From IMG/VR virus record IMGVR_UViG_3300009703_000023, positions 1-54,963 of that record: a DNA stretch of 54,963 nt; one strand, written 5' to 3'. The position numbers were made by a program, and so were the translations under genes. Each line of letters begins with the position of its first letter. Position 1 is the first letter of the stretch. The DNA is from a virus (taxonomy: Duplodnaviria; Caudoviricetes). Below, in pieces: positions 17,292 through 53,850 of the stretch. The notes under the pieces were generated by a model. The model did no database searches. It worked only from the letters and a program-made list of their open reading frames with translations, and was not told the DNA's origin.

Positions 17292-18416
17292 CTACTCTTG
17301 GTTGTCGGGATGAATGTAGACCACTGTTCCAAAGGGAGCTGTCCCACGGCGGTCTGTAGAGATCCAAAGGACTGGAATACCAGGTTCTTCTCCGAAGTCA
17401 TTGGATTCCAGATCAGTGAAGTACACAATCGCTGCTACATCTGGATGATTCTTATCTACGTAGTCGATAGCTGTATCGAAACGTGTGCCGCCTCCTCCTA
17501 CGGGCTGATATTCATGAAGCTCAAACTCTTGAGCCGGATCCACGACCAGTTCGTTTTCTACATCTGTGTCGCACGACAAGATCACCAGTTTTTCTGGGCT
17601 TAAAGCTTGGTGGATATACCGTACTTCTGTAACGAATTGGTTGAGCAGCTCTGGATCTGCTGTTATTGAAGCTGAAGTGTCGAATATAACTGCGAATGGC
17701 TCAGCAGCTGGAATCCCTAAGCTGGGAAGATATTCGTCTTCAGATATATAGGCTCGGTTGGGTTTCCTCCATGAGTAGTCTGTTCGGGAAAGCGATTGCA
17801 GGAAGGGCCAAAGTACGGAGCGCCAGTTAACCAGCGGCGCTATTGCATCTTCTACAAGAAGCTTTAGATGAGCTGGCATTTTGCCTGCTCTTTCTGCGGC
17901 TTCTTTAGCAGCAGCTACATTTTGTTGCCAACGTACTTCCTCCGCAGATTCATTTGCAGGTGCGTCTAGTACTCCGCCCCATTTGCAGCCTTCAGCGCCG
18001 TCGGGAAGAGCTGCATATACATCGTCGGTGTGCATGCCTTCGAATTGGGAGTCGTGAAGTCCGCCATCAGGAAGAATGAAGCCAGCCTTCAAGAGGCAGA
18101 GGTTGATTACATGATCACCTGCGACATTCCATTTTTTTGGGTCTCGTTGGCCTCGTCGGGTGTGATGCTGCAGCGCTGGATGCATTACTTCATGAGCAAT
18201 AAGCCCCATGGTCTGCAGAATATCTTGTTTGCCCATCCACTTAGGATCGTAAAACAACCGTCTTCCGTCAGTAGCTGCCGTTCCTTCGGCTTTTTCTGGA
18301 TCTACTACGGGAGTAAGGCTAAGTGCTAATGTCCCGTAGAAAGGATGATCCAATAGAAGATTGTTACGGGCTTTGCTTATTTGGCGTTCGACCTTTTCAA
18401 GGTCTTCTTGGTCCAT
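17292..18416 (-). CDS. DUF2201-type metallopeptidase plus vWA domain protein
   Basis: TAATDG, HEVMH, D-x2-IN; vWA MIDAS-like DTSAS, GGGGT, FTD. Confidence 0.88.
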   Translation of the reverse strand: MDQEDLEKVERQISKARNNLLLDHPFYGTLALSLTPVVDPEKAEGTAATDGRRLFYDPKWMGKQDILQTMGLIAHEVMHPALQHHTRRGQRDPKKWNVAGDHVINLCLLKAGFILPDGGLHDSQFEGMHTDDVYAALPDGAEGCKWGGVLDAPANESAEEVRWQQNVAAAKEAAERAGKMPAHLKLLVEDAIAPLVNWRSVLWPFLQSLSRTDYSWRKPNRAYISEDEYLPSLGIPAAEPFAVIFDTSASITADPELLNQFVTEVRYIHQALSPEKLVILSCDTDVENELVVDPAQEFELHEYQPVGGGGTRFDTAIDYVDKNHPDVAAIVYFTDLESNDFGEEPGIPVLWISTDRRGTAPFGTVVYIHPDNQE

Positions 18417-32076: not shown

Positions 32077-32277
32077 GTGACCGAGATAGCCCCAGTCGTA
32101 CCTGTTTCATGGGTCTCAGTAGCTCAAAATAAGGTTGAGACCCTTGAAAAGGCTGCGGATGGGGAGTTTATCCGGTCAACTAGGTTTACCACGGAAACAA
32201 CGATCTACACATTAGCTGAAGGTCGTTTGGAAATTCAAAAAATCTCAGGAGGATCTAATCTGCTCGGAGAAGCGTGA
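32077..32277 (+). CDS. Small hypothetical protein
   Basis: 66 aa, GTG start, GTGA coupling with the next gene. Confidence 0.5.
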   Translation: MTEIAPVVPVSWVSVAQNKVETLEKAADGEFIRSTRFTTETTIYTLAEGRLEIQKISGGSNLLGEA

Positions 32278-32759
32278 CCATGTTCGGTTTCGGTATAGGT
32301 GAAGCTGCTGCAATAGCAGGCGTCATTTCGACGCTTAAGTCGTTGAACGACGGTCTTTCTACTATAAAGGAGTCTGGTGCCCACGCTGGTAGTCTTGTAA
32401 CGCTTGTCTCTCGTTATGGGGAAGTCGAGAAGAAGATCCAAGAGGTTGAGTCCGCTAAGGGGGGCGTACTCGATCTGAAACAGAGTATGCAAATGCAGGT
32501 GGCTAAGCGCCAAGCGCAGACTTTTAATCGCCAGCTGAAAGATGCTCTATTGATGAGTGGGCAGGCGTCTCAGTACAACGAGATAATGACTCGTATAGAA
32601 GAGTCGAGAGAAGCGCACGAAAAGGCCGTTGCGAAATTAAAACGCGCAAAGCAGAAACGGAAGAAAGAGCTGCAAGAGGCGTTTAAGGTTATAGGGATAT
32701 TTTTTGTAACTGCAGCCGTGGTGTTTGCTATCGCCATGGCTGTTATGGCCTATTATTAA
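32274..32759 (+). CDS. Coiled-coil protein with C-terminal transmembrane helix
   Basis: 161 aa; hydrophobic N-terminal segment, basic coil, TM tail. Confidence 0.65.
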   Translation: MTMFGFGIGEAAAIAGVISTLKSLNDGLSTIKESGAHAGSLVTLVSRYGEVEKKIQEVESAKGGVLDLKQSMQMQVAKRQAQTFNRQLKDALLMSGQASQYNEIMTRIEESREAHEKAVAKLKRAKQKRKKELQEAFKVIGIFFVTAAVVFAIAMAVMAYY

Positions 32760-32773
32760 GTGCTTACTTCGAC

Positions 32774-32802
32774 TTGTTTTTGCGAATTAGCATCGCTAAT
32801 AT
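32774..32802 (+). promoter_or_regulatory. Capsid promoter with operator copy 5 in the spacer
   Basis: TTGTTT-N17-TAATAT containing ATTAGC-ATC-GCTAAT (32786-32800); same geometry as 26424. Confidence 0.72.
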
Positions 32803-32810
32803 TCGATTAT

Positions 32811-32972
32811 TCGTATGCCCTGACGATAGACGGGCCGTGTCGTACACGTAAAAACCGTCCTCGCCTGCACTAGGCGTTAAAAAAGCCGAGTTCGCTGCTC
32901 GTAAATAATGCGCTAGTTCGTCGAACCACGATACGGTTCAGGAATAGCCGGTCCTTATACGGTTAAATGGCT
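32811..32972 (+). ncRNA. Structured 5' leader of the major capsid mRNA: six tandem hairpin/pseudoknot units
   Basis: Repeated CG-closed short stems, each followed by a TA/A-rich tail; loop-tail complementarity is clear in three units. Confidence 0.55.
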
Positions 32973-33012
32973 TTTTGCCTAGAACTTTTCGCATTAATTA
33001 CGAGGGAGCCTA

Positions 33013-34161
33013 ATGGCTACTACTAACTTTTCTACGCTCTCCGAAGGCCAACTGACGGCCTGGAGTCGCGATTTCTGGCGTGTTGCTCGCAACATGTCTT
33101 TTATCAATCAGTTCGCCGGGTCTGGCAGCAACGCCATGGTTCAGCGTGTTACTGAACTCACCAAATCCGAAAAAGGCGCAAAGGCGGTTATTACGCTGCT
33201 TGCCGACATGACCGGAGACGGCATCACGGGTGACAACACTCTCGAAGGGAATGAAGAAGCGCTGCGCGCATACGACATCTCCATCGAGCTGGATCAACTG
33301 CGCTTTGCAAACCGGCTTGCCGGTCGCATGGCCGACCAGAAGGTGGTTGTTAACTTCCGTGAGCAGTCTCGTGATGCTTTGGCCTATGCTATGGCTGATC
33401 GTATTGACCAGTTGGCGTTTCTTACGCTGTCTGGAATTGCGTATACCAATAAGACAGGTGGTGGACAACGCACCGTGTCTGGTACGGCTGGCCACGAACT
33501 GGTTGACCTTGAGTTTGCGTCGGATGTTTCCGCGCCGACTAATGGACGCCACAAGCGTGTAAGCGGCAATGACCTTGTTGCTGGCGATACGACCGAAGTA
33601 ACGGCTACGGACATACTGAAGTACCGTCACATTGTTGATCTTAAAGCTTATGCTAAAGATCAGTATATTCGCGGTATTCGCGGTGCAGGTAACGACGAGA
33701 TGTTCCATCTCTTCGTAACGCCACAGCAGATGGCCGACCTTAAGCTTGATTCTGATTTCCTCGCCAACGTCCGTAATGCGGGTGTACGCGGGTCACAGAA
33801 CCAGTTGTTTGCCGGTAGCTCCAGCCTGATGGTTGACGGTGTGATGGTCCATGAGTTCCGTCATGTCTTCTCCAATGAAAACGCTACAACCGGGACTAGC
33901 AGCAACGAAGGTGCAGCTTTCTACAAATGGGGTGCAAACGCTAACGTAGTTGGCGCACGTGCTCTGTTCTGTGGTGCTCAAGCACTGGCCTTGGCTGATA
34001 TTGGTCTCCCTGATATCACTGAAGATACCTTCGACTATGGTAACCAGTCGGGTATTTCCATTGGTAAGATCTTCGGGCTGCGTAAGCCGAAGTACAATCA
34101 GGACGTACACGCTACGGCTGTACAGGACTTCGGTGTCATCTGCCTCGACACCGCTCAGTAA
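33013..34161 (+). CDS. Major capsid protein (N4 gp56/DUF4043-like)
   Basis: TELTKSEKG, GDNTLEGNEEAL, DQLRFA, DYGNQ...GKIFG...DFGVI; GAGGGAG RBS; followed by a strong terminator. Confidence 0.92.
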   Translation: MATTNFSTLSEGQLTAWSRDFWRVARNMSFINQFAGSGSNAMVQRVTELTKSEKGAKAVITLLADMTGDGITGDNTLEGNEEALRAYDISIELDQLRFANRLAGRMADQKVVVNFREQSRDALAYAMADRIDQLAFLTLSGIAYTNKTGGGQRTVSGTAGHELVDLEFASDVSAPTNGRHKRVSGNDLVAGDTTEVTATDILKYRHIVDLKAYAKDQYIRGIRGAGNDEMFHLFVTPQQMADLKLDSDFLANVRNAGVRGSQNQLFAGSSSLMVDGVMVHEFRHVFSNENATTGTSSNEGAAFYKWGANANVVGARALFCGAQALALADIGLPDITEDTFDYGNQSGISIGKIFGLRKPKYNQDVHATAVQDFGVICLDTAQ

Positions 34162-34167
34162 GAACCC

Positions 34168-34196
34168 TGCCCCCTCTTCGGAGGGGGCATTTCTTT
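34168..34196 (+). terminator. Rho-independent terminator
   Basis: TGCCCCCTC-TTCG-GAGGGGGCA followed by TTTCTTT. Confidence 0.9.
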
Positions 34197-40287: not shown

Positions 40288-43200
40288 ATGGCCGTTAATC
40301 CAGTTTACAAAGCCCTACTGCAGGGCAAGCAAAGCGCAGAAGACACGCCGTCTGAAAACGTTGTAGCAAAAGCGATGGTTTCAGAAGAAGAGCCTCGCCC
40401 TGCTGCTCCCGGCACTCTTTCTGAAAGTTTTGCAGCCGGGTACAGATCAGGGGTACACGGTCTTGGTAGAGACATAGACTATTTTAAGGCGCTTCTTAGT
40501 GCTTCGGTGGGCGATGAGGATGAGGCTGCGCGGCATATTAGGAACGCTCGCATAGAAGAAGAATCAGCCGCTGCGCCGCTGCGTGGGACCGAAGAGTGGA
40601 GCGATTTTTTAGAAGAGCCTACTTTGGAGGGTTTCCTACAAAAAGCAACAGAGTTCGGAGGACAGGTTGTTCCTTCTGTTATGTCTTCCATAGCAGGCGC
40701 AGGAGTAGGTGGCCTAGTAGCAGCAGGTGGTAGGGCAGTTGTAGGTAAGTCTGCGCGGACTGCCGCAAAGAGGCTTATCGAGGATTCCTTAGAACGTACC
40801 GCAAAAGGCGTAGCAGACCCTGATGAGCTTCGCCTTGCTCAACTGGCCTATAAACAGTATCGAGATACGACTCGGAAAGTTGTAGAACGGGGAGCGCTGG
40901 TCGGCGCGTTTGGATCAGAGTACCCACCCTTAGCTGGGTCAAATGTTTCTGAAGCCCTTGAGTCCGGTCGAGAGCTAGATAGGACACAAGCTTTTAGGGC
41001 GGCGGCTGTAGCTCTTCCACAAGCAGCTATAGGTGTAGGGGGAGAAGCCGCCTTATATAAGCTCCTAGGTAATGTAGCTAAAAAACGCTCACAGGGAGAA
41101 GGAAGCATATTTGGGCAGTTAGCTGCTTCTGTTACCCGAGGAACGGCTATTGAGTCAACAGCCGAAACAGCGCAAGAAGAGATAGCCATTAGAAATAGAA
41201 TGGCTATGGACGACACGTTTACTGCGGAAGAAGCGTTCTTGCGTAGGACGCAGGCGTGGTTTGCTGGAGCGATTTCTGGTGGTGGCGCAGCAGGCGTTGG
41301 TACTACAGGCGTAGCAGCAGCTCAGCGTGTAGCCAAAATTGACCCTAATGAGGCTCTGGAAAAAACAGCTACCGTCTACGAAAAAGCACGTTCATTGTTA
41401 CGAAGCGCGCAAGAGCAACGTGTTAATCGTGATATAGATAACGAACAGTATGGGGATCTTTCTTCCACTGTAACTACACCGGAAGCTGAGTCTGATATCA
41501 ACGCGCAGTTGAATGCTATTGCAGATCCAACCAGTGCAAAAGCTTCAACTTGGGTAGCGGGAACATCAGCGCGTATTGCTACAACAGCAGAGGCTCCTAA
41601 TACAGCGATAGAGATCTCTATTAAAGGCACTACAGCTTGGGCTGCTTTTATTCCGGGTAAAGGGACCATCTACTCAAAAAGCAAAGACGTAGTAGAAGAA
41701 GTAATTAACAGCAACGCAAGCGATAAGGCGCTACAACTTGCTCTCGGGTACAGTAAGGCTAAAGATGAAGTACCTGACGGCGATCTTGTAGTCCAAGTTT
41801 TTGACGCTCAGAACAATGTCATAAGCGAAGAGATTACAGACACTGATAGTCTGCCGGGGGCTTTGTCAGCTGCAGCTGATATCCAGCCAGAGGGCGGTCG
41901 TATAGGCCAGACCACTCTTGAAAAAGCTCTTGAAGAACGTGCAGCCCGTGTGGCTAATGAGCAAAGCCCGGTCAGTGAGATGTCCGCTCGTAAAGGGTTT
42001 GGCGAAGAAGAAGTTGACCTGACTTGGGGCGCTGCGTTTAAAGAATTAGCCGCTTTATTCGGTGGCGAAGAGACAATCCCTCTCTTAAACAGAAGCCCCG
42101 GTTTAGCCCCACGGGTAGAGGATGGCGGCGTTAAAGTTGAAGGGTATGAGCCTAAAAAAGATCCGAATAGAGAGTTTGATAACGAAAAAGACGCCCGTAA
42201 GAGCGTAGAAGAAGTTTCTGGCAAAGTTGATTGGAGCGACGGCTTGTACGCTCGTATGTCTGCTGCGCTTCTTAAAACGGTTGCGGCTCAACGCCAGATG
42301 TACCCAGATAGCATTGTTGGCGTTGAGCACGATGTGAAGACTGACCGTTTCTATGTGACACGGCTTGATCCCGAGGGAGATCGGTTTCGCTTTGAAACCA
42401 GAGGTAAGGTCGAGCTACTTCCTAGGGACGCATTTATAGAGAGGTCTATTGCAGCAGCTAAGGCTAGTAAGGAGGAATACCGTGAAGGGACTCTTACTGG
42501 CCCTGACGGTAAGAAGTCCAAAGTTAACCTAATCGATCTGGTTAATACGGGTCGTAGATTGATACAAGCTACAGAAGGCGTTCCTTGGACTGGTGATCAG
42601 TCTGGTGAGATCGATGCTATTAAGCAATCGCTCCGAGAAGTCCTTGGCGATTTGGCTTTGCGAGGCTATTCACTAGAAGTTGATGGCTTTGACCTTACAG
42701 CTGATTCGGGTTTTTTTACAGGTGATAAAAAAGGCTCATCACCGAGAGCTAAGTTCGGTCCAGTAGTCGCTTTTACTTCAACTGGAAGCCAGGTTCGTCT
42801 TGAACAGGCCCATAACGAAAGAAGCACCATAAATCCTGAAGCCGTTGAGGTTCCTTATCTAGTCAGAGATTCAGACGGTGAAATAATTGGAAGGCTAAAT
42901 ACGCCTGAAGCTCAGAACGCTGTCAGAAATACGTTGAACGACGATTCGTTAAAGGACGTAGAACCAGACCAAGCAGTAGAAGCGTACCTAGATAATTCTC
43001 AAGAGCGCGGACCGAGAGAAAGACAAGAGGAAGGAGATGAAACTTCTCCTGCTCAAATGCAGAACCGCCTTGAGCTTGCTCTTAAAGATTTGGATTTTAG
43101 TTTAGTACCCGCTGAAAATTTGCGGGGTTTACCGGAGACAGAAGGCCGAGAAGATGTAACTCCTGAAGGACCGCTCGATGACCCGAATCAGTCTTCTAGG

Positions 43201-46038
43201 GGCTTACCAGAAAATACTGCTGGTAGACCCGCTACTTCTAGTGCTGCTACTACTGTCTGGAAAGAAACCGTTGATAACGCTCCTTCTGAACCCGAACTAA
43301 GCTGGGCCGATTTACCCTACGGAGAGTCGGATAAGCTTTGGATAAGCGAGCTTGCTAAAAGAGTCGTTGCTAGATTTCAGTCTACGCTTAAGCTTAAAAA
43401 CCCGCCTGCTGTATTTAGCTTTGCTGAACTTACTTCTGCTGATCCAAACAGCGAGCTATGGGCAGCTTTAAAAGCAAACTACTCTGACGCTGACTTAGTG
43501 TTTATAGAACAGCAGATCAGACTTATGCAAGACGATCCGTCCATGCTCGGACGGTATCTGTGGAATACAAATCTGATCATAGTTAGGGAGTCAGGTAACC
43601 CCTTAACTGATGCATATGTTTTAGCCCATGAGTTTGGGCATGCCTTTTATCACCAAGAAGTTAAAACCGCTTTGTTCAACCCGGCGTTGTATAAGCGACT
43701 ACAAGCTGCTTATGAAGCGGACCCGCTTCATGATACCTATGTAGAAGAGTATGGTTCTCTGGGCATAGATGAGTGGCATGCAGACCAAGTTGCGAGGTGG
43801 GCGGTTAAAGACTATACGAGCCGTCCTCCAAAAAATATGCCTGAACGGCATTTCAAGCGCATTGTTAAAAAGCTAAGGCGCTTATGGCAGGAGCTACGGC
43901 GGGAATCAAAAGAGCTAAGCGCTGGGCATACAGTGCGGTTCGGTAATGTAAATACCGATTTCGATAGCTATCTAAATGCGGTTATAAAAGCTAAACGGGA
44001 CGAAGACGCTAGAAGTGATGCCCTTTCTATAACTGAAAGGATTTTCCCGCAAGCAGTACATAACGCTGTTGTGGAAGAAGGCGGTAAAGCTATAGCTCTA
44101 CACTGGCGTAAATCTCTGGCGGAAATTGCTCGCCCCCTTATGAGATTTGTAAGTACTGCGGACTCTGTACTTAGGTCGTATGCAGGTGATGAGCTGGCAG
44201 ATATGTTTTATGTCCGCTCCCAGCAGGATGACTCAGACGGACGTTTGGGTATGCTTGGCCAAATTGGGGTTACGGTGCATCGGTTTGTAAATGAATTTAC
44301 AGATCAGATTGGGGACATGAATGATCCTGCTGTTCAAGCTGCTTTTAGAGAGGCTGCAGGAAAGAAGACAACGGCTGAGCTACAAGGTAAAGCTAAGCAG
44401 ATTCGGCTATTTCTTGAGCGTCTTCATGAAGAGTACATAGCTCCTTCCAATACAGATATAAATCGCTTACCTAACTACTTCCCCATAGCGCTTAACCTGC
44501 TTGCGATAGATGAAGCGGGTGATCAGTTTGTTGACTTATTAGTCGCAGAGTCTCCCGGCCTTACCCGTGCAGAAGCTCGTAAAGCTGTTGAAAAGATAAA
44601 ACGCCTTAACCAAACAGCAGCAGATGACCAGCCTATTTCTTTAAGCCCTGAAGATGGTTTTAATCCTACTGACCCCTCTGCTATAGCAGAGCGAAGAAGG
44701 CTTCTTACTCTAGGTATAGACCCAAGCATATTGGCTGAGCAAGGGTACTTGTTACCTCCTGATCAAGCCTTTATGAGTTACATGCATCATGTAGTTAAGC
44801 GCGTTGAGTGGAACCGCGCCACAGATAATGGCGCTCGTGTAAATCAGATTCTCGAAACCTTAGACCCTGAAGCTAGGGAAGTCGCGCTGTCTACAATCGC
44901 GACTTATCTGGGGTATCAGACTTCCCCGCTCAGTCCGTTGTGGCGAAAAGTTAATTCTTATGGGCAGTTCTTTCAGTTCGTAACTATTCTTCCGTTTGCT
45001 GCTATAGGCTCTATTACAGATTTAGCTGGCCCAATTATTAACGCTAAAGAATTTAATCTGGATACTTTCTTAGACGGGTTTAAGCAGCTTGTTTATACGA
45101 TTAAAAATCCCGAAGAAAGGAAGCAGTTCGCCCGTGACCTTGGTCTTGTTACTAATGAGACTGTAGCGAATGCGTGGGTAACACAGGCGGAACAAGACTA
45201 TATGGATCCGGCAATCCGCCGTGCTTCAGACGTTTGGTTCCGCATGATTGGGTTGGATCAATTTACCAAGTTTTCTCGTGAGTTTGCCGCTGGCATGGGT
45301 GTCCAGTTTATTGTTAAGCATGCTAGGAACGAGTTTAACAACCCTAGGTCAGAGCGGTATCTGAGAGAGCTTGGCCTTACTGCCGAAGAAGTTTTGAAGT
45401 GGCATGCGGACGGGCGTCTTCTTTCTACTCCCGAAGGGAAGAAAGTGGCGCAAGGCGTAGTCCGGTTTACTGAGTCTTCTATTCTTCGACCTAATGCCGC
45501 GGAAAGACCTTTGTGGGCAAGCGACCCTCATTGGGCACTCATATGGCAGTTGAAGAGCTATTTCTGGGCCTATTACAAAGTTATAGGCGGCGGCCTTATG
45601 CGCGAACTTAAGACTCGTATTGCTGAAAACCCTGGCGAAGAGGGTAAGTTAAATGTGGCTCAGTTGACTGCTGCAACTAGTGTTCTTGCGCTGACAGCCG
45701 TAGCGACAATGCCCTTGGCTATGCTGGGATTAGAGCTTCGCGAGTGGGCAAAATACGGTCTTGCTTGGGCGTTGCCCGGTGTTTCCCCAAAAGAGCGCTA
45801 CTTTAGGTCAGATCGTATGGAGTGGGGGGATTATCTTGGGGAGATGGTAGACAGGTCCGGTTTTCTTGGACCTATGTCGCTGGTGGCTATGTCTAATCAG
45901 CAGATGGAGTGGGGGCGTTCTGGTATGACTCCTATCTTAGGCCCAACTGCTGAGACTTTAGAAACTATATGGCGCAACGGTTTTGATGTAGGTAAGACTA
46001 TAACGGGCCGAGTCTTACCAATTTATAACCAACTTTAA
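40288..46038 (+). CDS. Giant internal virion/polyvalent protein with zincin-like domain
   Basis: 1916 aa; G/A-rich hydrophobic N-terminal region, AHEFGH...DEWHAD motif, helical C-terminus. Confidence 0.7.
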   Translation: MAVNPVYKALLQGKQSAEDTPSENVVAKAMVSEEEPRPAAPGTLSESFAAGYRSGVHGLGRDIDYFKALLSASVGDEDEAARHIRNARIEEESAAAPLRGTEEWSDFLEEPTLEGFLQKATEFGGQVVPSVMSSIAGAGVGGLVAAGGRAVVGKSARTAAKRLIEDSLERTAKGVADPDELRLAQLAYKQYRDTTRKVVERGALVGAFGSEYPPLAGSNVSEALESGRELDRTQAFRAAAVALPQAAIGVGGEAALYKLLGNVAKKRSQGEGSIFGQLAASVTRGTAIESTAETAQEEIAIRNRMAMDDTFTAEEAFLRRTQAWFAGAISGGGAAGVGTTGVAAAQRVAKIDPNEALEKTATVYEKARSLLRSAQEQRVNRDIDNEQYGDLSSTVTTPEAESDINAQLNAIADPTSAKASTWVAGTSARIATTAEAPNTAIEISIKGTTAWAAFIPGKGTIYSKSKDVVEEVINSNASDKALQLALGYSKAKDEVPDGDLVVQVFDAQNNVISEEITDTDSLPGALSAAADIQPEGGRIGQTTLEKALEERAARVANEQSPVSEMSARKGFGEEEVDLTWGAAFKELAALFGGEETIPLLNRSPGLAPRVEDGGVKVEGYEPKKDPNREFDNEKDARKSVEEVSGKVDWSDGLYARMSAALLKTVAAQRQMYPDSIVGVEHDVKTDRFYVTRLDPEGDRFRFETRGKVELLPRDAFIERSIAAAKASKEEYREGTLTGPDGKKSKVNLIDLVNTGRRLIQATEGVPWTGDQSGEIDAIKQSLREVLGDLALRGYSLEVDGFDLTADSGFFTGDKKGSSPRAKFGPVVAFTSTGSQVRLEQAHNERSTINPEAVEVPYLVRDSDGEIIGRLNTPEAQNAVRNTLNDDSLKDVEPDQAVEAYLDNSQERGPRERQEEGDETSPAQMQNRLELALKDLDFSLVPAENLRGLPETEGREDVTPEGPLDDPNQSSRGLPENTAGRPATSSAATTVWKETVDNAPSEPELSWADLPYGESDKLWISELAKRVVARFQSTLKLKNPPAVFSFAELTSADPNSELWAALKANYSDADLVFIEQQIRLMQDDPSMLGRYLWNTNLIIVRESGNPLTDAYVLAHEFGHAFYHQEVKTALFNPALYKRLQAAYEADPLHDTYVEEYGSLGIDEWHADQVARWAVKDYTSRPPKNMPERHFKRIVKKLRRLWQELRRESKELSAGHTVRFGNVNTDFDSYLNAVIKAKRDEDARSDALSITERIFPQAVHNAVVEEGGKAIALHWRKSLAEIARPLMRFVSTADSVLRSYAGDELADMFYVRSQQDDSDGRLGMLGQIGVTVHRFVNEFTDQIGDMNDPAVQAAFREAAGKKTTAELQGKAKQIRLFLERLHEEYIAPSNTDINRLPNYFPIALNLLAIDEAGDQFVDLLVAESPGLTRAEARKAVEKIKRLNQTAADDQPISLSPEDGFNPTDPSAIAERRRLLTLGIDPSILAEQGYLLPPDQAFMSYMHHVVKRVEWNRATDNGARVNQILETLDPEAREVALSTIATYLGYQTSPLSPLWRKVNSYGQFFQFVTILPFAAIGSITDLAGPIINAKEFNLDTFLDGFKQLVYTIKNPEERKQFARDLGLVTNETVANAWVTQAEQDYMDPAIRRASDVWFRMIGLDQFTKFSREFAAGMGVQFIVKHARNEFNNPRSERYLRELGLTAEEVLKWHADGRLLSTPEGKKVAQGVVRFTESSILRPNAAERPLWASDPHWALIWQLKSYFWAYYKVIGGGLMRELKTRIAENPGEEGKLNVAQLTAATSVLALTAVATMPLAMLGLELREWAKYGLAWALPGVSPKERYFRSDRMEWGDYLGEMVDRSGFLGPMSLVAMSNQQMEWGRSGMTPILGPTAETLETIWRNGFDVGKTITGRVLPIYNQL

Positions 46039-48825: not shown

Positions 48826-51800
48826 ATGGCCGTTAAGTTCTGTAATAACTTTGCCTCGACTCTTTCGTCCGGCATAAATTCCTCGGCTACTACTATATCC
48901 GTAGCGAGCGCTACAGGACTTCCTAGTCTTAGCGGCAGTGACTACCTGTACCTTACGATAGACACGGATACAGGTAGCCCTACTCGAGAAATAGTCAAAG
49001 TTACTGGAATATCCTCTAACGACTTAACAGTGGTTAGGGGGCAAGACGGTACTTCGGCAACGTCTTTTGACGCAGGTACTAAGATCGAACTACGGGTAAC
49101 GGCGGCAGCTCTTCATGAGTCTGTTTCTGTAGCTGTAGATGACTTAGTGGATTCAGCTCCTGGGGCGCTTGATACGCTTAACGAGCTAGCTGCAGCTCTC
49201 GGCGATGATGCTAATTTTTCTACTACGGTAACTAATAGTATAGCCACAAAGGTGCCATTAGCTGGTGGCACCATGACGGGCAATCTGACAGCCCCGAATC
49301 TAAGTATCACGAGTACGAATTGGTTCGGGTTTGGAGACTATGGCGAAAGAATCACCGGGAGTAACGCTGCTGGCACGCTTACCTTTCTAACCGACGCCAC
49401 CACTGCGCTACAGCTGGACTCTTCACAAGGCGCTACGTTCTCGGGAGCTGTTACTGTAGGAGCAGACGACACTGGTCACGACGTTAAATTCTTTGGCGCT
49501 ACCGCTGGGTCTTACATGCTGTGGGATGAGTCCGCAGACGATCTTATTTTAGGAGGTGCTGCGCGCTTAGGCGTAGGGGATACTCCTGATTCTACTCTTC
49601 ACGTAAAAGACACTGTTCAAGCAGTAAACACATGGACGAGTCTTACTGATGCCGTTGCGGACGCATCTTTCAGATTTTTTGGTTCTAGCCATGCGAATGA
49701 GTATGGAATTTTCATGGGGTATGCCAACTCGTCAAATGACGCTCAAGGAATACAAGCGTCAAGGACTAGTGGCGCGGCTGCTTTCCCCTTACTGCTAAAC
49801 CCTTTCGGGGGCGAGGTCGGGATAGGCTTAACTGCCACAACGGCACCCTTAACAGTCAAATCAGACTCTACTAGTTCATCTGATTCCGGCATCACTTTAC
49901 AGGGTAACGGAAACACAAACGCCATATTCAAGGTTGGCGAAAAATCAACTGATGGTGCGCGTCTTCACATGTATGACGGCGGCACCGAGAAAATTGCTTT
50001 CTATACCGATGGCACAGCCAATCACATCAGCGCAGGTAATTTGGGTATAGGAGTCTCCCCACACGCCTCCTCAAAACTACATGTATATGGTGATACTTGG
50101 CTTGACAGCGCAGGTACAACGAATCGCAGTTTGTATTTCCGTAATCAATCAACAGATTCAACTGGAGGGGCAGTAAAGAGCGACCAGACCTTGTCGCTTT
50201 GGTCGGGCAATGGTTCCGGGGCTCCAGTTCAGCGAGTCACTATTGATACCAGCGGCGACGCCACGTTCGCCGGTAACCTTGATGTTGACGGGTCAGCGGG
50301 TATTTATCAGCGAAACTCCTCGGGTGGCAGTATTGTCCTAGACGATACGGATACTGCTGATGCATCAACACCAATGGTGTATTTGCGAAATGCTGCGGGG
50401 CAGTTGACGCTAGGTCGCTCTAATCGCAATGCGTCTACAGGGCTGACTACAAGCTCTACTGATTCTCTTACTATTTCTAGCGCCGGAAACGCTACGTTTG
50501 CCGGAACGATAACGGCTACAGCTTCGGGGGCGAATAGCAGTATATACGCGCTGGATTTAAGCCGATCAGGAAGTGGCAGCAGTCCCGACATCTGGTCGAA
50601 TAGCAATAATTTGGTTCTTGGCACAAGTGCTTCTAATGCTGTCTTAACCCTTCTGAATAGTGACGCAACGTTCGCCGGAACGGTGACATCGGAAACTACG
50701 ACAGGCGACGCAACATTCGTCGCGTATCGTAACCAGACATCGTTAGTTAACGAAGCTGATGGCTCAAATCTGATCGGCGCGTATTTGTTCAAATCTAGCG
50801 ATACGTCTGGCACGGAACCTCACTACGCCGGGATTGGTGGGTTTTCAAATAAATTCGGGCAAATGGAGCTTCAGTTTTTTACGAGCAGGGATAGGTGGGA
50901 AGCAGATCCTCGCGTTCCAACGCTCACGCTGGATAAAGATAAGGATGCTACGTTTGCCGGTGGTGCCACGTTTGCTGGTGATGTGACCGTGAGCGGCGGC
51001 ATCCTCAATTTAGGCACGGCAAACACAAGCTCCGCTCACATCAACTCCTATGAGCTGATGACGCTCAATATCGACACTGATAACGACGATACAGATCGTT
51101 ATTTCAAGTGGAGCAAAAATGGTTCGTCGGGTAGCGGCACTGAGCTTATGCGGCTCGATGAGAGCGGCGATGCCACGTTCACCGGTCATATTGAGCTTGC
51201 CGACAGCAAGTACCTAAAGCTCGGCGCTGACGCAGACTTCATTATCTACCACGACGGTACTAGCAATTACGTTCAAGCCGCAAAGCAAGACTCGGACATC
51301 ATCTTCCGAGGAAACGATGGTGGCACTGGCGTCAATATGCTTACGCTGGATACAAGCGCGTATGGTGATGCGACGTTTTCTGGACACGCAATCCTTGGCG
51401 GAAAGATCACTGTCGGCACCACCCTCGACGGCGTAGGCGCACCAGCGGCGGGGACCGGAGTTCTCGGCGCGACCAGCGCATACGGGGCGATTCTAACGGG
51501 TCAGGGTTCCACTAGCGATGTAACAATTACAAATGATGCAGGCAATACCGTTCTGCTCGTTCCTACCGGCACGCGCCATGTTCAAGTTCCTTACGGAGAC
51601 ATCACTACTCAGGGACTTACTGTCACTGGGGCTACAGATACCACCGAAGAGCTTGCACGTTTCCAGAACTCCGCAGGGTCCAACGAGTTGGTTATTTCCC
51701 AGGAGGGAACTTCTGGCTACGCAATTAAGTCTTCCGTAGATCTGCGACTGCACGCTGATGCTGACAATGATACGTCTGCGGGTGGCTCAAACATCAAGAT

Positions 51801-53850
51801 GTACACCGATGCCTCGGAGCGTATGCGTATAACTAACGGGGGCGATGTCACCATCGGAAGTGGTGACAATGTGGGTACTGCCGGAACCCTAGACCTGTCG
51901 GTAGGTAGCACAAATTACACGGGCGGTCTTACTCTGTGGTCCCCCAGCCAATCAGCTCATTCAGTAAGTTTTGGCGATGGCTACACAGGCACAAATCGCT
52001 ACCGGGGGTTCCTGCAGTATAGCCACATTGATGATTCGCTGGCATTCGGCACTACGTCAACCGAAAAAGCGCGTATTGACTCAAGCGGCAACGTCGGCAT
52101 TGGGACCACAGTGCCAGCCGGAACGCTTGATCTTGGAAACGCGACCGGCGGCAAATCAATCGTTTGGGGCGGGACATCAGCAGACGCTCATTACACAAGC
52201 ATATGGTCGGAATACGGAACCGCGTCACTAATTTTGGGTGCGGGGCTGAAGCCGCCACCCGCTGCCGCTGGGTTCAAGGTTCCCTATACAGGCACGTATG
52301 GCTACGCCGCGATTGAGCTAGACAGTTGGTCAGACGACGGGATGAAGTTCTACGTCGGACCTGATGCGTCCGTCACGAAAGACGCCGACATCACGCCAAC
52401 TGAAGTGATGCGGATTGCAACGAACGGCCGAGTTGGCATAGGAACCACATCGCCGGGCAGTCTTTTACATCTATCGGCAGCGGCAAGTCCTACGCTGCGA
52501 ATTGTAGATACGACGAATGACTGTACGCTGTTGGCTTATGCCCAGGACAGCGAAGCAATTATCGGCACGTACAGCAACCACGATTTAGGGATTTTCGCCA
52601 ATAGCGCTCGCGCTATGACGATTAGAGCTGACGGTTACGTGGGAATCGGCACCAACTCGATTGACAGTCGGCTGCACGTCGAATCAGGGGGAGCGACAGA
52701 GTTAACTATCGAGGGTGACGGGCAAGGTTATATAAATGCGGGGTTAGTCTTTAAGGCAAATAACAGCACTAGCTATCGTGGACTCGGCGTGTTCATGCAC
52801 GATGCAGGGGCTGACGTAGAGTGGTACGCAGGCACTCCCTATGCCGCTGCCGACACCTACATCATTGCGCGAAAAGCAAGTCTCACGTCGCATGACAACA
52901 GCATGGCTCAAACTGCAAACCAGCTTGTATCGGTTAATAGCAGCGGGACGCTTACAGCCCACAGCGGGTATCTTCAAGTCGGTGGCTCGGTATCGTCATA
53001 TGGCAGGATCGAGGCTTATGGCTCTAGCGGCGCGTATTTAGACCTCTCGCATGCTGTAAATCACTCGGGCGACTATGACTCAAGATTTATCAATGACGGG
53101 ACTAACACTCAGCTAACTAGCAAAACGGGATTCATCGATATAAACCCGCAAGCCGAGCGGACGTATCTCCGTCATTCGGGATCGGTGGTTCTTGAAACCA
53201 CTGCCGAAGGATTCAGATGCAGGGACACGTCGGGCAGTGAAGCAGCGTTAACCTTTGGCTCATCAGCCAACGCTACTCTTGGATCGGTTGTTGCAAGCAC
53301 CAGCGGTGGCGAGATGCAGTTTTATAGCTACATCCACGGCGCGGCTTTTGCTTTTCGCGGCGAAGATGGTGACGGAACTGTTAACTCAGTTATATGGGCA
53401 GATCCAGATTCTGACGTTTGGCTCTATTACGATGGGGGGTGGAAGTTCCGTACTGCAAGCGATGGAGTTTTGATCAACGGCAGTATTTCCTACAACTCAG
53501 ATCGTCGCCTCAAGAAAGACATTAGCCCGATTTCGGGCGCGTTAGACGCCGTAATGAGCCTCAAGGGCGTGAATTACACGCTGATTGATAGCGACACAAA
53601 GCACATCGGTTTCATCGCTCAAGATATTCAAGCAGACGCACCTAGCTGGTTGACCGAAAGAGTTGTCGTTGAGTCAAGCAGTAATGACGAAACCGCTAAG
53701 CGTAGGGGCATTATCCGAGACGACGAGAGCGTGGAGATGCTCGCGCTCAAGTACACGGAAATGGTGGCGCTTTTAACTGAAGCGATGAAGGAGCAACAAA
53801 CACAAATTGAAGCGTTAACTAAACGCATCAAAGAATTGGAGGATAAGTAA
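48826..53850 (+). CDS. Long tail fibre with C-terminal S74-type intramolecular chaperone
   Basis: EIVKVT..RGQDGT anchor, APGALDTLNELAAALGDD, repeated ATFxG/VGIG modules, SDRRLKKDI...GFIAQD...YTEMVALL. Confidence 0.9.
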   Translation: MAVKFCNNFASTLSSGINSSATTISVASATGLPSLSGSDYLYLTIDTDTGSPTREIVKVTGISSNDLTVVRGQDGTSATSFDAGTKIELRVTAAALHESVSVAVDDLVDSAPGALDTLNELAAALGDDANFSTTVTNSIATKVPLAGGTMTGNLTAPNLSITSTNWFGFGDYGERITGSNAAGTLTFLTDATTALQLDSSQGATFSGAVTVGADDTGHDVKFFGATAGSYMLWDESADDLILGGAARLGVGDTPDSTLHVKDTVQAVNTWTSLTDAVADASFRFFGSSHANEYGIFMGYANSSNDAQGIQASRTSGAAAFPLLLNPFGGEVGIGLTATTAPLTVKSDSTSSSDSGITLQGNGNTNAIFKVGEKSTDGARLHMYDGGTEKIAFYTDGTANHISAGNLGIGVSPHASSKLHVYGDTWLDSAGTTNRSLYFRNQSTDSTGGAVKSDQTLSLWSGNGSGAPVQRVTIDTSGDATFAGNLDVDGSAGIYQRNSSGGSIVLDDTDTADASTPMVYLRNAAGQLTLGRSNRNASTGLTTSSTDSLTISSAGNATFAGTITATASGANSSIYALDLSRSGSGSSPDIWSNSNNLVLGTSASNAVLTLLNSDATFAGTVTSETTTGDATFVAYRNQTSLVNEADGSNLIGAYLFKSSDTSGTEPHYAGIGGFSNKFGQMELQFFTSRDRWEADPRVPTLTLDKDKDATFAGGATFAGDVTVSGGILNLGTANTSSAHINSYELMTLNIDTDNDDTDRYFKWSKNGSSGSGTELMRLDESGDATFTGHIELADSKYLKLGADADFIIYHDGTSNYVQAAKQDSDIIFRGNDGGTGVNMLTLDTSAYGDATFSGHAILGGKITVGTTLDGVGAPAAGTGVLGATSAYGAILTGQGSTSDVTITNDAGNTVLLVPTGTRHVQVPYGDITTQGLTVTGATDTTEELARFQNSAGSNELVISQEGTSGYAIKSSVDLRLHADADNDTSAGGSNIKMYTDASERMRITNGGDVTIGSGDNVGTAGTLDLSVGSTNYTGGLTLWSPSQSAHSVSFGDGYTGTNRYRGFLQYSHIDDSLAFGTTSTEKARIDSSGNVGIGTTVPAGTLDLGNATGGKSIVWGGTSADAHYTSIWSEYGTASLILGAGLKPPPAAAGFKVPYTGTYGYAAIELDSWSDDGMKFYVGPDASVTKDADITPTEVMRIATNGRVGIGTTSPGSLLHLSAAASPTLRIVDTTNDCTLLAYAQDSEAIIGTYSNHDLGIFANSARAMTIRADGYVGIGTNSIDSRLHVESGGATELTIEGDGQGYINAGLVFKANNSTSYRGLGVFMHDAGADVEWYAGTPYAAADTYIIARKASLTSHDNSMAQTANQLVSVNSSGTLTAHSGYLQVGGSVSSYGRIEAYGSSGAYLDLSHAVNHSGDYDSRFINDGTNTQLTSKTGFIDINPQAERTYLRHSGSVVLETTAEGFRCRDTSGSEAALTFGSSANATLGSVVASTSGGEMQFYSYIHGAAFAFRGEDGDGTVNSVIWADPDSDVWLYYDGGWKFRTASDGVLINGSISYNSDRRLKKDISPISGALDAVMSLKGVNYTLIDSDTKHIGFIAQDIQADAPSWLTERVVVESSSNDETAKRRGIIRDDESVEMLALKYTEMVALLTEAMKEQQTQIEALTKRIKELEDK

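Follow-up and report, generated by a model that had tools for sequence, protein, structure and literature searches.

The spacer ahead of the major capsid gene in IMG/VR virus record IMGVR_UViG_3300009703_000023 (54,963 bases, completeness estimate 93%; this whole stretch is called the window below) carries six compact RNA units in tandem, and comparison with related leaders indicates that they are almost certainly a real, conserved, and strand-specific array of pseudoknots. Comparison also places the element in the predicted 5' untranslated leader of the capsid mRNA, in a clade of uncultured aquatic podovirus-like phages. By analogy with engineered systems, we tentatively suggest that the array is most likely a constitutive protective element, which would shield the capsid mRNA from 5'-end-dependent scanning by RNase E.

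The leader extends for about 205 nucleotides (nt) after the promoter, and its six units (U1 to U6), of 20-26 nt each, span positions 32811-32964. All six had been proposed in an initial annotation of this DNA, and all are present in the sequence. The structure tested here has 13 helices, comprising six H-type pseudoknots and a following hairpin, H7:

32811..32835, + strand: U1, H-type pseudoknot; stem 1 (T)CGT 32811-14 / ACG(A) 32823-26, stem 2 GCCC 32817-20 / GGGC 32832-35
32836..32857, + strand: U2; hairpin CGTG 32836-39 / CACG 32845-48, with an extra (T)/(A) pair possible
32862..32886, + strand: U3, pseudoknot; stem 1 CGCC 32862-65 / GGCG 32873-76, with an extra (T)/(A) pair possible, tail TTAAAAAA
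32887..32912, + strand: U4; stem 1 CGAG(T) 32887-91 / (G)CTCG 32897-901, tail TAAATAAT
32918..32939, + strand: U5, pseudoknot of the U1 type; stem 1 (T)CGT 32918-21 / ACG(A) 32928-31, loop TAC, stem 2 GAACC 32923-27 / GGTTC 32935-39
32940..32964, + strand: U6, pseudoknot with its own 5' flank; stem 1 AGGA 32940-43 / TCCT 32952-55, stem 2 AGCCG 32946-50 / CGGTT 32960-64
32969..32979, + strand: H7, a weak hairpin of 3 base pairs (bp), GGC/GCC, in the window

Related leaders were collected in two ways. Scanning IMG/VR with the capsid protein gave at least 600 matching stretches, 592 of which encode a relative; the top 80 loci, with 80-84% identity, went forward. Two of these had no upstream sequence (L034 and L071) and three had less than 215 nt of it (L008, L053, and L081); the remaining 75 loci and the window gave 53 distinct leaders, aligned as A1. 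An IUPAC pattern across the U1-U2 junction retrieved at least 120 IMG/VR loci, of which 110 of 120 have the capsid N-terminus 141-215 nt downstream, nine are contigs that break off shortly past the match, and one (L160) was rejected as a chance match in coding-like sequence. Pooling both sets yielded 182 leaders, 110 of them distinct. Alignment A2 contains 108, as L182 and L113 were dropped because the extracted stretch had no terminal start codon. Conservation of U1 and U2 in A2 is partly imposed, because 57 rows were found with a pattern that fixes bases there; the positions so fixed are also invariant in the capsid-derived A1. A hold-out set came from a scan with a divergent capsid (L127, 67% identical to that of the window), which gave 61 loci with 24 new distinct leaders; these were added to the alignment with its columns unchanged.

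Folded by itself, the 271-nt sequence from the window has a minimum free energy z-score of -1.79, and 8 of 200 shuffles fold equally well or better. The single sequence is not beyond chance, and it is the comparative evidence that is decisive. Across A1, standard pairs occupy 93.4% of 2644 cells, compared with 83.9±0.4% in column shuffles and 29-47% when the partners are slid by 1-3 columns. Compensatory cells number 264 versus 69.7±7.5 in the shuffles, a value matched by none of 500. The larger A2 gives the same picture, with pairing in 95.7% of 4934 cells (slid controls, 28-45%) and 495 compensatory cells versus 141.4±8.4. The covariation among homologous leaders that the initial annotation had named as its check is therefore present, with 27 of 51 pairs changing on both sides in A1 and 29 of 46 in A2. 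In the hold-out leaders, 1020 of 1079 cells pair (94.5%), and further compensatory variants appear there: CGU/ACG in the loop-tail helix of U4, AGUG/CACU in the stem of U2, and CGC/GCG in the first stems of U1 and U5.

Methods that were not given the structure recover much of it. In a mutual-information scan, nine of the ten top-scoring column pairs with a Watson-Crick fraction of at least 0.89 belong to the structure, pseudoknot pairs included. RNAalifold, which considers nested pairs only, recovers stem 2 of U1, stem 1 of U2, stem 1 of U4, and stem 2 of both U5 and U6. It also proposes a long-range pairing of CGU (93-95) with ACG (241-243), which we rejected: two CGC variants break it (CA 2), and the local partner compensates for them (CG 2). 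The excess of G.U cells over A.C cells (136 versus 40) assigns the fold to the RNA of the + strand, the sense of the capsid message.

The strength of the case varies among the units. It is greatest for the second helices of U1, U3, and U5, in which all 13 pairs change on both sides (6/6, 3/3, and 4/4, respectively). The initial annotation had noted an internal compensatory swap between U1 and U5, and this proves to be part of genuine covariation that extends over hundreds of cells. The first stems vary as well, with two of three pairs covarying in U1 (CGC/GCG variants), CGC/GCG replacing the U5 stem in L007 and L259, and two of four pairs covarying in U3. The U3 second helix joins loop GC (32867-68) to GC (32885-86) and is extended in most relatives to 3 bp, GCA/UGC; the cells read GC 78, AU 21, GU 9, and others. 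For U6, the initial annotation had paired the loop CC with a GG in the 3' tail. That assignment did not hold, as the GG belongs to the next hairpin and the CC pairs with AGGA at 32940-32943. With this repair both helices of U6 covary: the third pair of stem 1 reads AU 72, GU 13, UA 7, and other 14, and two of five pairs of stem 2 covary among the 108 leaders, with AGCCA/TGGCT, GACCG/CGGTC, and GTCT/AGAC as compensatory variants. The following H7, weak in the window, is a covarying hairpin of 5-11 bp in most relatives, and three of its five pairs change on both sides in the 53 leaders.

The first stems of U2 and U4 are likewise covarying. Among the 108 leaders, the two inner pairs of the U2 stem read UA 52, GC 45, CG 10, and AU 1 and CG 55 and GC 53, and three of five pairs of the U4 stem covary. 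Their loop-tail pairs are conserved and barely covary. In U2, which has an A-rich tail (TAAAAAC), loop CG (32841-42) could pair with CG (32856-57) of the tail; we call this pseudoknot putative because the CG/CG is invariant and a third loop-tail pair is unpaired in 40 of 108 leaders. In U4, loop CGC (32893-95) would pair with GCG (32910-12), two pairs being invariant and the third reading CG 95, UA 2, UG 1, and other 10, with UA 2 and CA 3 in the hold-out. The few compensatory cases in these two loop-tail helices are UA in L140, L152, L210, and L221. The proposal of mini H-type pseudoknots thus stands for U1, U3, and U5 and, after repair, for U6, while the knots of U2 and U4 remain putative. 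The window also contains a perfect 7-bp complement, TAATGCG/CGCATTA, between the U4 tail (32906-32912) and the region before the Shine-Dalgarno (SD) sequence (32990-32996). It is found in the window genome only; as a conserved pairing it was rejected, being unconserved and at about chance level, and it would compete with the U4 loop-tail helix.

Three types of unit can be distinguished. Type one (U1 and U5) combines a 3-4-bp CGU/ACG stem with a freely covarying second stem of 4-6 bp and an AUA(C) loop. Type two (U2 to U4) has a 4-5-bp CG...CG stem, an A-rich third loop of 6-8 nt, and a 2-3-bp loop-tail helix, putative in U2 and U4, and U6 is a third type. Tandem Repeats Finder detects no repeat in the array at a minimum score of 30, which agrees with the earlier description of units that share architecture and not sequence. 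In every row U1 abuts U2 and U3 abuts U4 with a 0-nt linker, so that each pair could stack to give about 15 coaxial bp; the other linkers measure 4-11 nt (U2-U3), 6 nt (U4-U5), and 1-7 nt (U5-U6).

All 53 leaders of A1 have the same architecture, i.e., -35 element, TAATAT, units in the same order, covarying hairpin H7, SD sequence, and ATG. More than 130 distinct leaders were seen overall; five or six knots are typical, and the number of units varies from four to six among lineages. Individual departures include L070, with U1 to U4 only, L158, without U6 and H7, L259, where a plain hairpin replaces U1, and L007, where a GGGGG/CCCUC hairpin replaces U6. The element is single copy in each pattern-found locus. 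A search of the 55-kb genome for units of the U1/U5 type returned the two leader copies and two weak matches inside genes, and a loose search for the U2-U4 type was uninformative (14 rows versus a shuffle mean of 5.1, with U4 the sole leader unit caught). The nearest cultured capsids are those of Pseudomonas phage KPP25 and its kin (50.8% identity), Aeromonas phiA008 (46%), and Acidovorax AP1 (41%). The spacers before these capsid genes are unusually long and unrelated in sequence (KPP25, L082 2147-2327; phiA008, L204 1004-1200; AP1, L205 1041-1200).

Known RNA classes do not account for the leader. Rfam 15 gave no match to it in the window at E<=10 or in seven relatives at E<=1, and no family, preQ1-I (RF00522) included, reached its gathering score anywhere in the window, in line with the suggestion that no existing family covers the element. 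Two hits were both taken as chance: mir-541 (E = 10) lies within the capsid gene, and Methylobacterium-1 (E = 0.1) was hit far upstream in L005. A coding role for the spacer was also rejected, as the open reading frames (ORFs) crossing it are just 21-37 amino acids (aa) long and the linker lengths vary by non-multiples of three.

The signals that flank the array place it at the start of the predicted message:

32774..32779, + strand: -35-like hexamer TTGTTT, 17 nt upstream of the -10 hexamer and aligned with a conserved TTGNNN
32797..32802, + strand: -10 hexamer TAATAT, in alignment columns that are invariant or at least 90% conserved
32809, + strand: predicted transcription start, the 7th base after the -10 hexamer and 2-3 nt before U1
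33002..33008, + strand: SD sequence GAGGGAG, unpaired in the conserved structure

The promoter reads as a host-type, sigma70-like one. In relatives the -35 element is TTGCAT, TTGCGT, or TTGACC, and the spacer to the -10 hexamer is 17 nt in 88 of the 110 distinct leaders; TAATAT is the most frequent best hexamer, found in 48 of 110. A consensus promoter scan missed the -35 element of the window because just three of six positions match. The conserved promoter lies upstream of the array, which bears out the earlier placement of the array in the capsid 5' leader. In the window, the CGT of U1 lies 9 nt past the end of the -10 hexamer, and for most relatives this distance is 7-12 nt. The transcript is predicted to start 0-5 nt before U1.

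RNA evidence is confined to one metatranscriptome run, stored as contigs, which alone contained any of the sampled words, at a share of 0.07. This RNA library includes a contig from a relative, 891 nt long, that joins leader and capsid coding sequence. Its first base falls about 93 nt upstream of the position equivalent to 32910, near U1 and the predicted transcription start, and it crosses the leader and reaches 33448 within the capsid gene. The contig gives no start, strand, or level. It would fit co-transcription and a transcription start ahead of the array, but is weakly indicative at most, as contigs lack true ends and DNA carry-over is possible. With regard to the host, a 28.8-kb contig in a marine Gammaproteobacteria metagenome-assembled genome (L203 1-260; NHJX01000010.1) carries the full promoter-leader-capsid cassette; this may be a host hint or a mis-binned phage contig, binning being weak evidence. 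The host is probably, if weakly indicated, a proteobacterium with RNase E.

The genome setting is that of a cassette:

32274-32759: ORF of 161 aa directly 5' of the spacer, without a PHROG match
33013..34161, + strand: major head (capsid) protein gene, 382 aa (phrog_334, E 5e-83)
34168..34189, + strand: strong intrinsic terminator directly after the capsid gene, ending a promoter-leader-gene-terminator cassette

The spacer itself (32760-33012, 253 nt) holds the promoter, the pseudoknot array, and the SD sequence, and the capsid gene starts at 33013. Terminase, portal, and a 360-aa gene in scaffold position lie further 5' of the leader. Homologues of the scaffold-position gene occur in 133 of 200 related loci and of the gene after the capsid gene in 170 of 200; those of the 66-aa and 161-aa ORFs between scaffold-position gene and promoter (32077-32759 in the window) occur in none of the 200. 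The slot before the capsid promoter therefore seems, from gene content, to hold variable accessory genes while the cassette is constant. Among 48 distinct downstream stretches of relatives, 43 have a hairpin and T-run after the capsid gene like the terminator of the window; given that the upstream ORFs are unconserved and the leader is always present, promoter, leader, capsid gene, and terminator travel as one cassette. The hairpin of the capsid-gene terminator is very GC-rich (CCCCCTC-TTCG-GAGGGGG type), and the C-terminus of the 161-aa ORF is hydrophobic. A scan of 18 ORFs of the window against PHROGs revealed no phage RNA polymerase, and no tRNA or tmRNA was detected in the window. Elsewhere the window encodes an HNH endonuclease-family protein among replication genes (phrog_1314, 17292-18416, - strand), a 1916-aa virion structural protein (40288-46038, + strand), and a 1674-aa tail-fibre protein (48826-53850, + strand).

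When this arrangement is placed into the context of mRNA decay, a function in protection can be envisaged. Entry by RppH and RNase E from the 5' end needs a single-stranded 5' overhang. A start so close to U1 would leave too little single strand for such entry, the 5'-terminal pseudoknot would hide the end of the transcript, and the serial coaxial helices would form discontinuities that RNase E could not step over while scanning from the 5' end. With scanning blocked, the A/U-rich ribosome-loading zone and the coding region would stay intact, and the capsid message would consequently be long-lived and highly productive; the SD sequence would stay free, and the strong terminator would follow the gene. 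With the array at one end and the terminator hairpin at the other, the cassette looks made for a long-lived monocistronic message. Excerpts of PMC9943677 (Richards and Belasco) report that H-type pseudoknots in the 5' untranslated region (UTR) of an E. coli reporter impede scanning by RNase E in proportion to how many coaxial base pairs they have (8, 11, 15), that the obstacle must persist to protect, and that protection is nearly lost when the knot is converted to orthogonal stem-loops, which do not impede. That pseudoknots and not orthogonal stem-loops block RNase E, as these excerpts have it, would give a reason for the use of knots instead of hairpins and for abutting units. The lineages with four, five, or six units fit a graded, additive effect.

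The region between the array and the start codon also bears on function. Of the 108 leaders, 107 contain an SD-like motif, at a median of 54 nt after U6, and the mutual-information scan found no Watson-Crick-consistent covarying partner for it. A terminator-like hairpin (at least 5 bp, with at least five T in eight positions) follows the array in 14 of 108 leaders, the window having a 3-bp hairpin only; an intrinsic-terminator attenuator was rejected, since a conserved GC-rich hairpin with U-run was not found beyond these 14. The free SD sequence and the scarcity of terminators support a constitutive instead of a switching element.

Several points weigh against the inferred mechanism of protection. 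Internal entry lets RNase E bypass 5' obstacles. The motif was not found by eye in the capsid leaders (160-200 nt) of KPP25, phiA008, and AP1. The stem ends are invariant (CG...CG), UAAA follows each stem, U1 and U5 share ACGAUA, and U2 and U4 tightly conserve a CG in both loop and tail; such primary-sequence conservation goes beyond what a generic obstacle would need and hints at recognition by a common factor. In addition, protection is reported in the excerpts of PMC9943677 to plateau above about 50 Å, so that one or two stacked units should suffice and six would be excessive unless the small knots breathe.

These sequence features are what a multivalent protein-binding operator would explain, in which a single protein of phage or host origin (capsid, scaffold, Hfq, S1, or another) would attach in several copies to the repeated CG-stem/UAAA and ACGAUA features; we regard it as unlikely, though it is the main rival of protection. 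They are conserved from unit to unit and untouched by covariation. The stretch from U6 to the ATG, which contains H7, has a median of 58% A+T versus 47% in the array, and this A/U-richer run toward the SD sequence is reminiscent of the gene 32 operator as described in excerpts of PMC3014915. By analogy with gp32 on its own pseudoknot leader, such an operator could set the timing or stoichiometry of capsid synthesis, an effect of which we are equally doubtful. A T4-type gene 32 operator in the strict sense was rejected, as the downstream gene encodes the major head protein (phrog_334) and not a single-stranded DNA (ssDNA)-binding protein. Against binding in general, the element's presence is not tracked by any candidate binder, the ORFs directly upstream being unconserved, the unit number varies among lineages, and the SD sequence lies outside the structure; moreover, A-rich third loops and GC-rich first stems are also needed by self-contained compact pseudoknots. 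In a more specific version, which we consider rather improbable, the six knots would form a platform on which each displays the same conserved face (CG-closed stem with UAAA or ACGAUA), so that about six molecules of a single protein could be held. Candidates would be a defence or decay factor of the host that targets RNA and is titrated by the phage, or else nascent capsid or scaffold subunits, which would couple translation to head assembly.

Ribosomal protein S1 binds A/U-rich RNA, and it might be speculated that the array enhances translation by recruiting or pre-positioning the 30S subunit, for example via S1, in the manner of the upstream pseudoknot domain of tobacco mosaic virus (TMV). 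Such a role would suit an element that sits in the leader of the gene with the highest expression and has an A/U-rich segment beside a strong SD sequence, and excerpted sources report that tandem pseudoknots of TMV stimulate translation (PMC5382211) and that S1 interacts with pseudoknots (PMC7038950). However, the array ends a median of 54 nt before the start codon, the SD sequence is close to consensus as it stands, and the knots are predicted to tie up the A-rich loops, which together make enhancement improbable.

A separate or processed RNA acting in trans is very improbable; much like the pseudoknotted repeats of type III antitoxins, it could serve as a sponge or decoy that occupies a nuclease or RNA-binding defence of the host. 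Tandem pseudoknot units of about 22 nt with A-rich segments, and the terminator-like hairpin in a minority of leaders, would be expected of it. ToxI-like type III antitoxin arrays, however, are near-identical tandem direct repeats beside a toxin gene. An array of that kind was rejected here: the units are not sequence repeats, they differ and covary independently, and the neighbours are structural genes with no toxin-like gene adjacent. Nor is there a conserved terminator; the element is invariably joined to the capsid start with a fixed spacing, and the RNA-library contig spans leader and coding region.

The weakest reading, a set of ligand-sensing aptamers of the preQ1-I riboswitch type, is scarcely credible: the likeness in architecture that the initial annotation saw is real, U2 to U4 sharing the layout of stem, A-rich tail, and loop-tail pairing, but no Rfam model matches, the hairpin loops, at 5-7 nt, are too small to offer a pocket more than 1-2 unpaired bases, and the lack of a conserved terminator and of SD pairing or sequestration means that there is no riboswitch-type expression platform or attenuator, so that the ligand sensor once proposed is unlikely.

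A full-text literature search found no description of such a capsid-leader array. According to excerpts of a 2023 study (PMC10690425), the mining of IMG/VR intergenic regions yielded 8495 candidate structured RNAs of 29-151 nt, five of them upstream of a different capsid domain, PHA00201; parts of the present leader may be listed anonymously (DNAVirus_n) in its supplements. With at least 592 capsid relatives and more than 130 distinct leaders, the element would be a widespread and strongly covarying structured RNA without an Rfam family. If protection is true, it would be the first natural element evidently built on a block of RNase E scanning by coaxial knots and not hairpins, a principle demonstrated until now with transplanted knots, and would offer synthetic biology a compact, modular stabiliser. 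If multivalent protein binding is true instead, it would represent a new kind of phage post-transcriptional control.

The knots of the TMV upstream pseudoknot domain stack coaxially. As regards tandem knots in a viral UTR, this domain may be considered the closest precedent. As excerpted from PMC5382211, it likewise consists of consecutive small knots in the UTR of a viral message, but tobamoviruses are eukaryotic RNA viruses whose domain lies in the 3' UTR, has three knots, and uses eukaryotic factors, and it has no sequence relation to the phage leader. The nearest phage precedent for a pseudoknot leader would be that of T4/T2 gene 32, where, in the excerpts of PMC3014915, a 5' H-type pseudoknot also precedes an A/U-rich sequence that extends to the ribosome binding site and the mRNA is the most stable T4 message. 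There, a single knot is bound by the downstream product, an ssDNA-binding protein, and UUAA(A) repeats overlap the ribosome binding site, whereas the present leader has six knots before a capsid gene. The engineered RNase E obstacles (BWYV, VPK, hTR, and SARS-CoV-2 knots; excerpts of PMC9943677) resemble the leader in placing H-type knots with coaxial helices between 5' end and coding region, with an effect graded with length. They are foreign knots, one per reporter, whereas the phage leader has five or six native knots in series, with two abutting pairs and a function that is inferred. Finally, preQ1-I and luteovirus-type frameshift knots are similar in scale, with 20-34 nt, a GC-rich first stem of 4-5 bp, an A-rich loop of 6-8 nt, and a second stem of 2-4 bp; the phage array differs from them in that it has no Rfam match, its loops are not of pocket size, it lacks an expression platform, and neither a slippery site nor a reading frame spans it. 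To our knowledge, no other bacterial or phage mRNA leader carries so dense a natural string of H-type pseudoknots.

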